A stretch of 63,020 nucleotides of DNA, counting the filler, from Octopus bimaculoides (lineage: Eukaryota): NCBI RefSeq assembly GCF_001194135.2. It is 6 parts of 6 records of this genome, joined end to end, with 100 filler letters (N's around TTAATTAATTAA, not from the genome) between each part and the next. Parts side by side here need not be neighbours in the genome. Positions count along the whole stretch, not along the records: positions 1 to 24,042 come from NC_068995.1; positions 24,143 to 39,317 come from NC_068996.1; positions 39,418 to 54,440 come from NC_068982.1; positions 54,541 to 56,368 come from NW_026378956.1; 2 more parts are not named here. One strand, given 5' to 3'. Below the pieces are notes generated by a model, which did no database searches, was not told where the DNA came from, and saw only the letters and a program-made list of their open reading frames with translations. Position 1 is the stretch's first letter. Each line of letters begins with the position of its first letter. A program made the position numbers and the translations under genes. Below, piece by piece: positions 6,879-54,882 of this stretch.

Positions 6879-6992
6879 GGACATATGGCGCAGTGGTTAA
6901 GAGCGCGAGCTACTAACCCCAAGATTCCAGGCAGTGACCTGAACAACAACAACAACACCAACGAAAAATACCTAAGGAATGAGAACCCAGTT
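6879..6992 (+). mobile_element. tRNA-derived SINE 5' part (A box intact, B box apparently deleted), 3'-truncated
   Basis: GGACATATGGCGCAGTGGTTAAGAGCGCGAGCTACTAACCCCAAG is a tRNA-like head. It is followed by (AAC)n and GGAATGAGAACC (6976-6987), which is also present at 49748-49759. Confidence 0.7.
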
Positions 6993-7849
6993 AGAGAGAG
7001 AGAGAAAAAAGAGATAGAGAGTGAGAGAGAGGTATGTATGTGTGTATTTGTGTTTGTATATATATATGTGTTATATATATTTATGTATGTATTATATGTA
7101 TGTATATTTAGAATAATAAGGTAGTCAGAATGTTGGATGGTTATACTTTTTATTTACATTTTATTTCTTCCCTTATTGGATTTATCAAAAAGTAGTTTAA
7201 AGTAAGATTTATTGGCCTTTTTATATATAAAGAATTTTGTGAGGTTTGCCAAGCAAGGGAAAAGAAAGAAGAAAAAGTTTATTTGAGAACAAGGGAGAGG
7301 TAAAGAGGAGTAGCTTTTGTATTGGTATAGTCAGATTTGTTTGTTTAGTACTTAGTGGCCTTTTAAGGTGGGGAAGGAAAAAGAATTTTTGTATTTGAAT
7401 TGGTCAAAGTTTTAATTGAAAAATCAGATGCACTTCCAGGTCTTGTTCTTTTGAATTCATTAAAGAATAGTTATATGGATGTGGTCAACTTTCTTTGATT
7501 GAAATTCTAGATGTTTTTGAAATTTGGTAAGTTTTGGTCATTTTAGCCACTACTCTTGATTTTTGTCCAAGGGTTTGTCCTTCAAACTGCAAAATGGACT
7601 TTTAAAGAAAGCAATACACAATGCTGTCACAATTACATTTCCAAATTCATCTATTTGTGGTTGGATGTTTTGTTTTGAATATATTTTAAAGCTCCAACCT
7701 ATAATTTTCTAAAGGAGAAAGAGAGACAAGTACAGAAGAGGGAATGCAGCTGTTCTTATAGAATTTCGGAATCTGGAGTGTTTTGCAAGGTCCAATAACA
7801 ATGTGGTAAAAAGGTTTTAGTAATGGTTTGAGATCATCTTTAACATACA

Positions 7850-10282
7850 ATCAAATTCATACAGAATTCTCATAGGTGGAGGAACACATGGGAAGAAAGA
7901 CAAGCAAAATACAAACAACCATTAACCCATAATACTAGACAACCTAGACTGATGAACACATGGAACAAGAGACAGGTGAAGAACAAGCAACACAGAGACT
8001 ATAACATAAAAAATCATAATGAAGACACAAGAAACCTACAATATATGACCACCAATCCTATATGGCTCAACAAATGTAGGAGATGGGAAGAAAACAACTA
8101 ATATGGACAATGAAATATATACAGACAACATGAACTGTTCCTTCACTCACAAAGACGCCTGAACCCCAGAAATAGAAATTGGAGCATAACAATACAACCC
8201 ATTTTTAAGGGAGAAAATATTACAACTGTGCTCTAGACCTAATACAGTAGAAGTTCCTAATGAACCCAGAAAACACATAGACCCTAAAATTATAAATTCA
8301 TCAAATAGAGACCTCAATGAAAATGAAATGAGTCTCTTACTAAAAAGTTTCAAATTTACCCTCACACCCACTCCGAATCTCATAGAACTAAAAACCAATA
8401 TTGAGAACTTCAACCATCACCTCTGTCTTCTAGAATTCTTCAACAACAAGACAGTAAAAGATGAAGCAATCATAAAAAAAAAATCTCATTTCACCCCCTT
8501 CGAAATTCCCTCTCAGTACCTGTAACTACAAACAGAACCTTCAGGAAGGAGAAAAAGAAGCTTTACAAAAACTAAAGAACAACAATTCAATCACCCTGAA
8601 GGACGCTGACAAGGGTGGGGTGATAGTAATCATGGACACAGACTACTACAAAGAAAAAATACTAGAAATTTTAACAGATCAACCATACTATAAGGAAGAA
8701 TCAAGACACCCAGAAAAAACAACACTAAATAAAATCAGGACATTAATTAACGAATACCAGGACTCCTTCACAGATAAAGAAAATAAAGCAATTTCTATGG
8801 ATTGCCCAAAATCCACAAAAGTTCCGAGATACAGAGGGCCATAAATGAACAGAGGAGTCAATACATCAAAACACAAAGACCCACAGACCTCAAAATGAGA
8901 CTGATAGTTGCTGGGCTCCAGGCCCCAACACAACAACTGAGTCGCCTCTTGGACATACACCTCAAACTTTTATACCCATTAATACCCAGCTATATAGAGG
9001 ATGACTTGGACTTCCTCAAATACATCCCAACCTCTATACCAACATACCGCATACCTTAGGCCTGGAAGTGGTCAAACACTGGTAAGAGAAAAACAGATGT
9101 ATAGATCAATGTTTCAAAACAGACTTCATCACCAAAGCCACTCCTCTAGTACTAGAAGTAAACACCTTCAGATTTGATAAGATATACCAACAGATAAAGA
9201 GCATGGTTATGGGTACGAAATTTGCACCCTCATATGCCAACTTAGTCATGGGTTACCTAGAAAGTAGACTTTATGAGGAAGTAGAAAAACCTTTGATCAC
9301 AACTTTAAGGAAAACATCATGAAGAAGTGGAAGCACTACCTCGATGACTGCTTCATTTTTTTGGGATAAACCAAAAGAAGACCTACAAACATTTCACAAC
9401 ACCCTCAACACACTGTATCCCTCTATCAAATCTACAACATAAATCAGCTACAATGAACTACCATTCCTAGACATTCACTTCAAAATAGACAACTCCTTTG
9501 TCACACCAATATTTAAATTTTTACCCTTACCACCCCTCACACATCAAAAGGAGCATCCCATACAGTTAGGCAAGATGCATTTGTACCACAATAACTGACC
9601 CACAAATATGCCAAGTTAGACTTGATGAACTCAAAAACTTCTTACAAGAACAAAATTACCCTGTGAAACTTATAAATAATGGAATCTCTAAAGCAATGAA
9701 ATTAGACATCATACAACTTGAGACTCCAAAAGAAAAAAAAAGGAACATACTGTTCCATTTACTAACATACAATCTTGGAATAACCAATATTTTTCATAAT
9801 ATACAATCAAACCTACCAATATTCTTATAGAGCCCCAAAATGAGAAAACTGACAGACAAAAGCTACCTGTGAAATAGTAACCTTAACAAACAACTTACAA
9901 GAGCAACATTCATGTCAGAGAATGAAACAGAATTCTCCACAAAGGAATGTAGAAACAGCAGATGTGGAATATGCAACAACAACTACAAACATATAGATGG
10001 GGACACCCACATAAAATTTAAGAGTGGATTCTTATTCAGCGTAAATGTAAATAGGAACTGCAAGATGCAAAACCTCATATACTGCATTACTTGCCCTAAA
10101 TTCAAAGAGAAGTATATTAGTGAAACCAATAATTCCCTTTGACAATGCACAAGAATCCACAGACAGCACATCTGACAAGAGGAGCTACAGAAAATTCCAT
10201 TAAGCAAACATTTGGAAATATGTGGAGAACAAAAATTCAATATCTTCCCCTTCTACAAATGCTCAAGGAACGACCCAAACTG
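7850..10282 (+). mobile_element. Degenerate Penelope-like element, RT plus GIY-YIG endonuclease
   Basis: Motifs in order across frameshifts: KFTLTP, DADKGGVIVIMD..Y, MPKIHK...LIVAG..APTQQLS, MGTKFAPSYANLVMGYLE, YLDDCFIF, LPFLDI, HP.HIKRSIPY, CRNSRCGIC, QNLIYCITCPKFKEKYISET. Confidence 0.92.
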
Positions 10283-11835
10283 CATCACTCTGGTGTTGGT
10301 TTTGCCATCAAGACAGAAATAGCTACATTCCTTCTTTCTCTACCCAAAAGTATTTCTGATCGCATCATGACACTAAGGTTAGAACTTAATGACAATACTC
10401 ATGCTACACTTATCAGTTGCTATGCCCCAACCATAGCCACCACTAAGCAGGAAAAGGAGGAATTTTACAACCAGCTCCCTGATGTCATCTCCAATTGTCA
10501 CCATAGGGATAAACTTATCCTTATGGGTGACTTGAACGCTCATGTTGGTACTGACTATCAGGCATGGGAGAGTGTACTTAGTCGGCATGGTGTAGGTCAA
10601 ATGAACTCCAACGGTCTGCGTGTGCTCGCTATCTGCAGGGAATTCAGTCTAAGCATCACAAATACCATTTTTCAACAGTGAAATTGTTGTAAGACGACCT
10701 GGATGCATCCTAGATCTAAGTATTGGCATCTCATAGACTATGTTAACACAAAGAAATGAGATATTAGGGACTTTAATATTACACGTTCTTTTCATAACAC
10801 GTGCTATCTCTCAGACCATTCTCTTTGCATAGTAAAGCTATGTGCCATCTGAAACACATGAGACTACAGAAGTCATCAGTGCCTAAGCTCATTAATGTTC
10901 TGCCTTTGAAAACTGTTGAAAAGCATGCTGAGCTCTCTATCAAGTTGGACACTGCACTCAACACTGTTGATATCAATGATGACATAGAATCATCTTGGAA
11001 GGCTCTGCATGATGCAACACACTCTGTATCTGTAAAAGTACTTGGACATTCTGTTTGTAAACATCAAGATTGGTTCAACGATAACAACACAGATGTCCAG
11101 CAGTTGATAGATAAAATGCACAGCTCTCACAGCACTTGGAAAAATGATAAGGGCTCATCCAGAAAAGAGAATGTCTACAAGAAATGCAGAGGTCAGGTCC
11201 AACATGCTCTGAGACAGATGAAGGAGGCTTATTGGTCTTTCAAGGCTATGAACTCCAAGAAGCTGCAGACAGAAAGGATTCTAAAGCGTTTTATGATGGC
11301 CTCAAGAAAGTGTATAGTCCTCAAGAGTATGGTGTTACTCCTATTTTTTCATCAAATAGAGAGACACTGCTGACTGACAAATCTGACAGCTTGAACCGAC
11401 AGAAAGATCACTTTTAAGCCGTGTTGAACCTCAGTCACTAATGACGACAGTCACTGGAGCCAACCTTTCTGGAAGTGGTAAACTCTATTAAACAGATCTC
11501 TTCTGGTAAAGCACCTGGCAGGGATGTTATCCCTCCTGAAATATGGTGGACAGAAAGTTTTTAAGAAACTGCATGACCTCTTGATAAACATCTGAAAGGT
11601 AGGCTGTGTACCACAGGACTTCAAGGATACCTCAATTCAACATCTGTATAAGAACAAATACAACAGAAGTGTCTGTGTTAATGATTGTAGAATATTGCTT
11701 CTGTCTATTGCTGGTAAGATTCTTGCTTGACTCATTCTTGACAGGATCATCAAACACATTGTAAATGATATCTACCCAGAATCACAGGGTGGATTTTGCT
11801 CTGGTTGTGACATTATCGACATGATATTTTCCTTA
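10283..11835 (+). mobile_element. RTE/BovB-type LINE fragment (APE endonuclease to RT N-terminus)
   Basis: SGVGFAIK...LISCYAPT...LILMGDLNAHVG...NSNGL...ITNTIFQ..KTTWMHPRSKYWHLIDYV, then SSGKAPG, LLSIAGKILA and PESQGGF; multiple stops and frameshifts. Confidence 0.93.
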
Positions 11836-54407: not shown

Positions 54408-54440
<33 letters not shown>

Positions 54441-54746
54441 NNNNNNNNNNNNNNNNNNNNNNNNNNNNNNNNNNNNNNNNNNNNTTAATTAATTAANNNN
54501 NNNNNNNNNNNNNNNNNNNNNNNNNNNNNNNNNNNNNNNNCACAAACACACACACAAACACACACACACATACACACGCACACACACATACGCACACACA
54601 CATGCACATGCATAATATAAACAGTAGGTTAGAATTTTAACCAAAAAAGAGAGCTATAATTGTCACTAGATGTGACGAATGTGTTCAGAAACACCTACAT
54701 TGTTAAAAATACATGCTCTAATGCCGCAATGCACATGAATGAAATG

Positions 54747-54882
54747 ACAGTTCTATATGTAAGAGATGAAGAATTATGTACATTATTTACATTATTTACA
54801 TTTGACGGATATTTGTCCTAATCATGTTTGTTGTTAACACAACGTTTCGGCTGATGTACCCTCCAGCCTTCATCGGGTGTTA
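54747..54882 (-). mobile_element. Second copy of the HHR-bearing element 3' end (HHR 54835-54882, core CCGATGA)
   Basis: The reverse complement aligns over ~135 bp with 49781-49914 with scattered substitutions; stem I TAACAC/GTGTTA is a perfect 6 bp. Confidence 0.9.

Follow-up and report, generated by a model that had tools for sequence, protein, structure and literature searches.

A tRNA-headed octopus repeat with a Penelope-type hammerhead end: a SINE likely copied by Penelope rather than LINE enzymes

Described elements with comparable parts

Sm-alpha and Sj-alpha are short non-coding repeats in which a Pol III-type promoter is followed by a type I hammerhead (accessible parts of PMC6765202 and PMC8490949). 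As described in these parts, Sm-alpha has a canonical, active ribozyme, is often arranged in tandem and is released from multimers by cleavage, and no partner among the Penelope-like elements (PLEs) is named there. The octopus family analysed here shows the same succession of promoter and ribozyme, and differs from Sm-alpha by a minimal ribozyme of the PLE type, a mostly dispersed look and the insertion marks of PLEs.

With the pseudo-LTR ends of endonuclease-bearing PLEs, as presented in excerpts of PMC4209133, PMC8557442 and PMC11167929, the family shares the ribozyme architecture, the inverted 5′ arm, an optional tail of 30–40 bp and frequent 5′ truncation. An inverted, 5′-truncated copy and the optional tail are given as PLE marks in the excerpted text of PMC8557442, according to which the tail is absent from non-LTR priming; the tail corresponds to the gap between two RT start sites (PMC11167929). 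In contrast with PLEs, the octopus family carries A and B boxes in a tRNA-like head that stands upstream of the ribozyme, in the place of the RT–endonuclease ORF.

Animal non-LTR retrozymes (PMC7229834; bioRxiv 10.64898/2026.07.22.740005) and, in the accessible part of PMC8557442, Chlamydomonas MRC1 are also short and non-coding, and PLE enzymes have been proposed to act on them in trans. Tandem units and circular RNAs are the defining traits of retrozymes (PMC7229834; bioRxiv 10.64898/2026.07.22.740005), whereas in the octopus family the head is of the SINE type and no tandem junction predominates among the matches listed; the word tRNA has no occurrence in the main text of the bioRxiv paper.

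The family also resembles tRNA-derived SINEs, which are shorter than 700 bp, carry a tRNA-like head with promoter boxes, and are dispersed in very high copy number. Three octopus SINE families, OK, OR1 and OR2, were reportedly described by Ohshima and Okada in 1994. OR2 has been named as a CORE-SINE (PMC4758252). SINEBase defines SINEs as elements of less than 700 bp that depend on a LINE reverse transcriptase, whereas the marks of the octopus family point to a PLE. No description of the family was found in searches of published papers.

Organization of the family

The window, i.e. the whole stretch of Octopus bimaculoides DNA analysed (63,020 nucleotides, filler included), contains three partial copies at the places given in an earlier note on this DNA (Table 1). 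That note had assembled them into one composite family, composed of a tRNA-like head, a minimal hammerhead and a PLE-type 3′ end, with a single 12-bp overlap as the link. Contigs assembled from public runs (X2, X6, X11, X17, X19 and X21) were compared with stretches of the window, and they join head and hammerhead from both sides. Past position 6990, at least 22 X6 and at least 4 X2 contigs run into the hammerhead lead-in (window 49763–49783), and at least 279 X6, at least 26 X11 and at least 2 X21 contigs show (AAT)n and then window 6962–6973 upstream of 49746. Behind 6990 the continuation is a single sequence in one orientation among the matches listed. These reciprocal joins supersede the overlap, and the segments are collinear, as the note had suggested verifying; the collinearity of the whole element is deduced from tiled junctions, the full span being present in none of the contigs among the matches listed. 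The word common to the two copies is slightly longer than first noticed, 13 nt exact (at 6975 and 49747), extending to 15/16 with one mismatch, and the common 12-mer does not occur in 60 block-wise dinucleotide shuffles of the window.

Table 1. Features of the window that belong to the family or to its context
Feature	Position	Strand	Remarks
Short arm repeating the 5′ end of the head in inverted orientation (5-nt gap)	6860–6876	−	Directly upstream of head; sequence comparison
tRNA-like head: A box 6886–6896, 7-nt anticodon-like loop	6879–6942	+	A-box match
(AAC/AAT)n run and linker	6943–6990	+	Gives way to microsatellites at about 6990
Decayed PLE: RT, Cys-rich linker, C-terminal GIY-YIG	8283–10274	+	tblastn; context only
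Left target-site duplication, 15 bp	49657–49671	+	Exact repeat of 49916–49930
Inverted, truncated copy of hammerhead region, PLE-type inverted arm	49672–49736	−	5′ side of insert
Linker shared with head copy, 9-nt gap after 49745	49737–49779	+	Leads into ribozyme
Minimal type I hammerhead	49780–49825	+	Descriptor scan
AC-rich then AT-rich 3′ body	49826–49881	+	Many family copies end at 49873–49881
Optional 3′ extension of about 35 nt, PLE-type tail	49882–49915	+	Found in the two hammerhead copies of the window
Right target-site duplication, 15 bp	49916–49930	+	Exact repeat of 49657–49671
5′-truncated copy: hammerhead, body, tail	54747–54880	−	U4-to-C change in core

As is usual for a SINE, the element is short (about 300 nt from the tiled junctions), non-coding and dispersed, in thousands of distinct contigs with unlike flanks at both ends. 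It is high-copy, with 24,096 X6 contigs on the 186 bases of the hammerhead stretch and 3,194 on the 137-base head stretch, summed contig depth not being equal to copy number; it is also present in X19 (84 contigs) and X21 (283 contigs), run labels not being taken as evidence of host range. Scans with exact patterns yielded no match in the viral, the metagenome or the prokaryote collections. The sequences flanking the element, ahead of 6882 and following 49873–49881 and 49917, are mostly dissimilar (agreement 0.41–0.50 among the matches listed), as expected of dispersed monomers. Long unlike flanks stand behind 49873, 49878, 49879 and 49881 in at least 79, 49, 95 and 200 X6 contigs, respectively; beyond 49881 cover goes on at lower depth to about 49917, behind which at least 9 X11 contigs have heterogeneous loose ends. 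Among the matches listed the 3′ ends fall into two zones separated by about 35 nt, 49873–49881 and about 49915–49917, which corresponds to the optional 30–40 bp tail of PLE derivatives. The 3′ body terminates in a short AT-rich repeat.

The A box of the window head is weak evidence alone (4 matches in the window versus 1.45 expected), and this copy lacks, after 6928, the 12 nt that hold the B box. Loose ends bearing the B box are found behind 6927/6928 in at least 46 + 153 X6 and at least 48 + 137 X17 contigs, and the A box at 6886–6896 and the family B box stand at tRNA-like spacing, as in a SINE head. ARAGORN found 0 tRNAs in the window, whose head copy is decayed and has its B box deleted, and Rfam gave no tRNA match to this copy at gathering threshold or at E up to 10; phage records matched the head only at E 6. 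The (AAC)n run that was thought to follow the tRNA-like head is present, but in family contigs it is mostly (AAT)n. Runs of four or more T are absent from the sense strand of the element, which is compatible with Pol III transcription and no proof of it.

The second partial copy is an insert between the duplications 49657–49671 and 49916–49930, inside a mariner transposase gene (Pfam HTH_48 before, Transposase_1 after). Linker, hammerhead and tail lie together inside one 15-bp target duplication, which indicates that the composite was moved in one piece. In its inverted arm this insert matches the direct copy at every one of 64 nt, among them two letters (49789 and 49847) that are not those of the family majority. 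Inverted arms recur as loose ends at other loci, before 6869 (an arm like 6860–6876, in at least 32 X6 and at least 35 X17 contigs), before 6875 and, in X19, before 49762; inverted 5′-truncated copies beside the insert (49672–49736, 6860–6876 and the other loci) are a feature of PLE derivatives. The inverted arm, the 15-bp duplication (49657–49671/49916–49930) and the decayed PLE (8283–10274) had been overlooked earlier. A 9-bp stem (49837–49845/49889–49897) was discarded, being no better than shuffles (z −0.89; z +0.88 in the minus-strand copy at 54747). The hammerhead and tail do recur on the minus strand at 54747, 49781–49914(+) and 54880–54747(−) agreeing at 90.3% over 134 nt, but the core of this third copy is mutated; a target duplication of at least six bases was not found at its ends.

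The hammerhead motif

The ribozyme had been described as a canonical type I hammerhead. It is instead a minimal motif of the PLE type, the monomer of which lacks helix III: stem I (49780–49784/49821–49825), the core (49785–49791), an extra A (49792) and stem II (49793–49812) are accompanied by GAAA (49813–49816) and the palindrome AACGUU (49815–49820), with a predicted cut after 49820. Its short helix I, extra base before stem II, G10.1–C11.1 pair and palindrome are those listed for the minimal hammerheads of PLEs (PMC4209133), so that the motif is of the type found in PLE pseudo-LTRs. A strict-core descriptor of the minimal hammerhead matched at 49785(+) only and in 0 of 60 shuffles, and relaxing the core added 54876(−); the fold has a z of −2.57, with 4 of 200 shuffles as good. 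The covariance scan that had been proposed as a check was negative, no Rfam hammerhead being matched at gathering threshold or at E up to 10, where the only matches were hairpin-type or weak.

The core CUGANGA, the GAAA, the NUH and stems I and II are present in the copy at 49780 and in the family majority; the minus-strand copy at 54747, with its U4-to-C change, does not have this full set. At N7, the core position free to vary, T (74%), A (14%) and C (about 12%) all occur, while U4 varies in 1.6% of the X6 depth. The CpG sites of stem II and of the palindrome are mutated in 11–16% of the X6 depth, so that many copies are dead. None of the 20 stem pairs is changed on both sides, in three rows that are too few to judge covariation. 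In the predicted fold of the monomer the core would be paired away, with the cleavage strand, and the predicted cut at 49820 would part the promoter head from the 3′ end; inserted copies hold both sides. Self-processing by the hammerhead is not supported so far for this family, and it is probably not needed for its copying. Cleavage was not required for insertion in vitro of an anole PLE (PMC11167929). A protein search with the frame across the hammerhead (25–81 aa) gave no match, and the frame from the core ATG had no convincing match to the fetched PLE proteins.

Copying by PLE enzymes and alternative explanations

We consider it probable that the family is a dispersed, tRNA-headed, SINE-like element that ends in a PLE pseudo-LTR and is likely copied in trans, as uncleaved RNA, by PLE enzymes. 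The observations on which this reading is based are the joined structure, the high copy number, the 5′-truncated copies, the inverted 5′ arms, the 15-bp target duplication and the two zones of 3′ ends. Because it carries the insertion marks of Penelope-like retroelements, this short repeat is likely a SINE copied by Penelope rather than LINE enzymes. The 3′ half would be a captured PLE pseudo-LTR bound by a PLE protein; reverse transcription would begin at one or the other of two internal positions, so that some copies have the tail and others lack it, and priming on both strands would produce the inverted arm. The copied RNA would be uncleaved, and the hammerhead may be a passenger, able to cut only as a dimer or with the help of a protein.

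The inverted arm, the optional tail and the PLE-type ribozyme all fit the mobilization in trans by a PLE that the earlier note had put forward, but an autonomous PLE sharing the 3′ end of the element was found neither in the flanks of the window PLE nor among 196 fetched proteins. The presence of PLEs in the window was counted for the preferred reading, as was the difference between the variable N7 and the rarely changed U4 of the core; the mutated CpG sites were counted against it. The PLE at 8283–10274 aligns by tblastn with fetched RT and GIY-YIG proteins up to residue 690 of 712, with 72% to an Octopus sinensis protein and 68–75% to an O. bimaculoides protein; of two PLE fragments used in searches one gave no match and the second matched, and a LINE fragment stands in place of the 3′ end of this PLE. 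Three stretches flanking this PLE were compared with the element and have no DNA similarity to it above that of shuffles, and the best score of the frames of the element against the 196 fetched proteins (44) is not clearly above the shuffle maximum (41). The head at 6879 was rejected as the 5′ end of this neighbouring PLE, because other copies go on into the hammerhead and because the two are separated by 850 bp, made up of microsatellite and unrelated sequence. Pfam gave no match to the minus frames (all three) of 7100–7819, a region that resembles a LINE 3′ end by eye only.

An alternative that we regard as unlikely starts from source elements in tandem or permuted form, as for Sm-alpha and the retrozymes of animals, or from a unit that is the pseudo-LTR of an autonomous PLE which took a tRNA as promoter; cleavage of the dimer would then be important, and the dispersed copies would descend from such sources. 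It would account for a leader of about 30 nt, absent from the window, that is common to a subset of copies upstream of the head (at least 36 contigs each in X6 and X17, agreement 0.67) and that counts against the preferred reading, since a transcript started at the tRNA 5′ end would not carry it. The head-to-tail hammerhead repeats seen in organism B (at least 4 contigs behind 49839, at least 1 before 49783), at least one X6 contig that goes back from 49881 to 49749, and the retention of the palindrome in the family majority point the same way, as does the working of Sm-alpha from tandems (accessible part of PMC6765202). However, the best-supported ends before 6882 (at least 84 contigs per run, agreement about 0.41) and those behind 49873–49881 and 49917 are heterogeneous, and among the matches listed they are neither tail-to-head junctions nor a common PLE body.

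It is improbable that the family is an ordinary LINE-driven tRNA SINE that captured a piece of a PLE pseudo-LTR, with the hammerhead and the PLE end as relics. A short AT-rich repeat like the one close to the main 3′ ends is also seen in LINE-driven SINEs, duplications of 15 bp are likewise usual when LINEs prime, and RTE-type LINE sequence is present in the window. Nevertheless, twin priming by LINEs inverts sequence without duplicating it, whereas the inverted arm duplicates sequence that is also in the direct copy. Furthermore, a poly(A) end is found in neither window copy, and the excerpted texts of PMC8557442 and PMC11167929 present the optional tail, of about 35 nt in this family, as a feature of PLEs alone.

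We find it very doubtful that there is no single element and that PLE end-pieces repeatedly inserted at a preferred site in a separate tRNA SINE mimic the junction: the hammerhead depth in X6, about three times the head depth, would fit such events, but 5′ truncation explains this gradient, the mariner-gene insert holds head-side linker, hammerhead and tail in one target duplication, and the sequence behind 6990 is single and in one orientation among the matches listed. A chance overlap between three unrelated pieces, conceivable from the window alone (E 0.26–0.58), is refuted by the reciprocal joins and has practically no probability left.

For the broader proposal, that the family copied by PLE enzymes is a true Pol III SINE parasitizing PLEs and not LINEs, with at least tens of thousands of copies, and that it is among the main octopus repeats and A-to-I substrates, our belief and our doubt are evenly balanced. 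If moved by PLEs, a tRNA-headed element would add a new partnership between a small-RNA gene and a retroelement, outside the standard definition of SINEs, and part of the large, mostly unclassified SINE fraction of octopus would be PLE-driven; of the 900 SINE families recently active in O. vulgaris, 893 lack a classification (PMC13282606). With its thousands of copies of about 300 nt, the family is also a natural mutagenesis screen for what PLE enzymes need in cis and for the necessity of hammerhead cleavage. The double-stranded RNA made by the built-in inverted arms could link the family to cephalopod RNA editing. RNA-type runs have an excess of A>G/T>C changes, similar to ADAR editing.

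Joining of the head and the hammerhead

The element considered here is a repeat of about 300 nt composed of a tRNA-like head, which may resemble eukaryotic tRNA-Thr, an (AAC/AAT)n linker, a minimal hammerhead, an AT-rich 3' body and an optional tail. The three segments from which the earlier note had reconstructed it were all recovered in the window (see the table). The head copy and hammerhead copy 1 have in common a 13-nt exact word, which by itself reaches only E 0.26-0.58 within the window, and the two hammerhead copies share 90.3% identity across 134 nt. A minimal-hammerhead descriptor with a strict core matched at 49785(+), and at 54876(-) only when U4 was permitted to be C; strict matches in shuffled sequence were 0 of 60. 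Rfam and ARAGORN, run on the window segments, called no hammerhead and no tRNA.

The join was tested with assembled contigs from 7 of 24 public sequencing runs, the 24 representing 10 studies. The head stretch matched 3,194 contigs in run X6 and 2,721, 145 and 89 in other runs, and the hammerhead stretch 24,096 in X6, then 2,486, 283 and 84. Past 6990, at least 22 X6 contigs run on beyond the head (likeness of these loose ends to each other, 0.66) and open with the 21 letters of window 49763-49783; at least 4 contigs of run X2 give the same hammerhead lead-in (0.81). Read upstream from 49746, contigs pass through (AAT)n into 12 letters of 6962-6973 (at least 279 in X6, 26 in X11 and 2 in X21). 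These continuations from both sides show that head and hammerhead are joined parts of one real family, as had been proposed; a contig spanning the entire unit was not found among the matches listed. The B box, missing from the window's head copy, is present past 6927/6928 in at least 46 + 153 contigs of X6 and 48 + 137 of X17. Hundreds of distinct flanks were observed. Summed X6 depth, which is inflated by overlapping contigs and is not a copy number, is about 2.2 million for the head and 6-8.7 million for the hammerhead (33-83 for single listed contigs); 10^4-10^5 family copies are plausible.

That the source elements are tandem or permuted units is a live alternative. It is favoured by a roughly 30-nt leader that lies upstream of the head and is common to at least 36 contigs in each of X6 and X17 (DNA-type), and by a few contigs of X21 with tandem hammerhead units, in which 49783-49839 is repeated head to tail every ~57 nt. 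The leader, upstream of 6872 and not in the window, is AT-rich and carries a TATA-like word that precedes the tRNA-like start by about 30 nt. X21 (283 contigs) places the element under a second organism label, organism B.

Features of the window
Feature	Position (strand)	Remark
Head copy	6879-6990(+)	
Coding-like stretch between head and PLE	7110-7800(-)	decayed; LINE 3' end-like by eye; no Pfam match
Penelope-like element (PLE)	8283-10274(+)	decayed; Neptune/Nematis-type, Cys-rich linker; C-terminal GIY-YIG
LINE fragment	10285-11820(+)	cuts PLE; AP-type endonuclease
LTR-retrotransposon fragment	17564-18609(+)	decayed; RVT_1 and rve matches
Mariner transposase remnants	26378-26979(-); 49475-50451(+)	second houses the element
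Insert	49672-49915	inside mariner transposase gene; flanked by two identical 15-bp repeats
Hammerhead copy 1	49737-49915(+)	
Hammerhead copy 2	54747-54880(-)	core U4 is C
Inverted/fold-back repeats	34996-35414; 19755-19979/20386-20582; 1-80	self-BLAST; some could be further PLE-type inserts
Direct repeats, ~210 bp, 100% identical	23291-23506/23827-24042; 24232-24444/24557-24769; 38889-39097/39109-39317	beside N gaps; likely assembly artefacts

Ribozyme and insertion anatomy

Stem I of the ribozyme is 5 bp long; stem II is 6 bp and begins with a G-C pair, and an additional A sits between positions 9 and 10.1. The motif also holds the palindrome AACGUU, and the monomer has no helix III. In the available portion of Cervera and de la Pena (PMC4209133), stem I, the extra base, the G-C that opens stem II and the palindrome are features of PLE minimal hammerheads, although stem II is slightly shorter here than their 7-8 bp; the single motif tested there did not cleave and dimers cleaved weakly. 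Folding predicts that the core of the monomer pairs with the cleavage strand. The predicted cut after 49820 would part the putative promoter from the 3' end, and because copies keep both sides of it the copied RNA is likely uncleaved. In the work of Frangieh et al. (PMC11167929, in part) the ribozyme cleaved only when protein was present, and uncleaved RNA served as the principal template in vitro. Within X6, N7 (a free position) is polymorphic and U4 differs in 1.6% of depth, which hints weakly at constraint acting on source elements; the ribozyme's CpG sites are decayed by 11-16%.

The insert opens on its 5' side with 65 nt of the hammerhead region in inverted orientation. This arm and the direct copy are identical over 64 nt, even at two letters departing from the family majority, and both arms therefore likely stem from one event. 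A short inverted arm (6860-6876) accompanies the head copy as well and recurs as a loose end in at least 32 and at least 35 contigs. The 3' ends concentrate at 49873-49881 (at least 79, 49, 95 and 200 X6 contigs, with long dissimilar flanks), and a minority of contigs extend to about 49917. The excerpts of Craig et al. (PMC8557442) describe as PLE marks both a 5'-truncated copy in inverted orientation and an optional tail of 30-40 bp, the tail being the interval between two internal RT start sites in those of Frangieh et al. (PMC11167929).

Relation to PLEs and known hammerhead repeats

The final ~20 codons and 3' end of the window's PLE are replaced by the LINE fragment; similarity to the element in three stretches around this PLE was not above shuffles, and that it lies 850 bp behind the head is probably due to chance. 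Among named proteins, the best matches of this PLE suggest that the host is an octopus. The element's reading frames gave no convincing match to 196 proteins.

As far as the accessible text goes, Sm-alpha and Sj-alpha are Pol III SINE-like repeats with a hammerhead that operate from tandems (PMC6765202, PMC8490949), animal retrozymes and MRC1 belong to the non-autonomous derivatives of PLEs (PMC7229834, PMC8557442, bioRxiv 10.64898/2026.07.22.740005), and SINEBase defines SINEs as LINE-dependent. By SINEBase criteria our family has the head and size of a SINE. We consider it a SINE-like parasite of PLEs, a candidate mode of action that we hold to be fairly probable. Our literature search found no octopus hammerhead SINE or PLE-driven tRNA SINE among the matches listed. 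The portions available of the octopus repeat papers contain no instance of 'hammerhead' (PMC13282606 with supplement, PMC8967140) or of 'ribozyme' (PMC9115989), and the available part of the giant squid paper gives 235 Rfam hammerheads without connection to SINEs. The family may already stand in Repbase, Dfam or earlier octopus work as an unclassified consensus.

Base changes in RNA-type runs

Across window 49786-49850, the RNA-type runs X11 and X19 are richer in A>G and T>C changes than X6 (X11 taken as RNA and X6 as DNA, both by guess, from different individuals). Such changes account for 2 of the 36 changed places in X6, for 7 of 24 in X11 and for 14 of 26 in X19. In X11 against X6, with ratios from 25 of 40 rows among the matches listed, 6 of 13 A>G or T>C rows were raised 3.5 to 22 times, and none of the 12 rows checked for other change types exceeded 1.2. 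The excess fits ADAR (A-to-I) editing of transcripts in both orientations; part of it could come from a more strongly expressed subfamily. Possibly through contamination or mislabelling, X19, labelled an insect metatranscriptome, carries the element in 84 contigs, with many editing-like changes.
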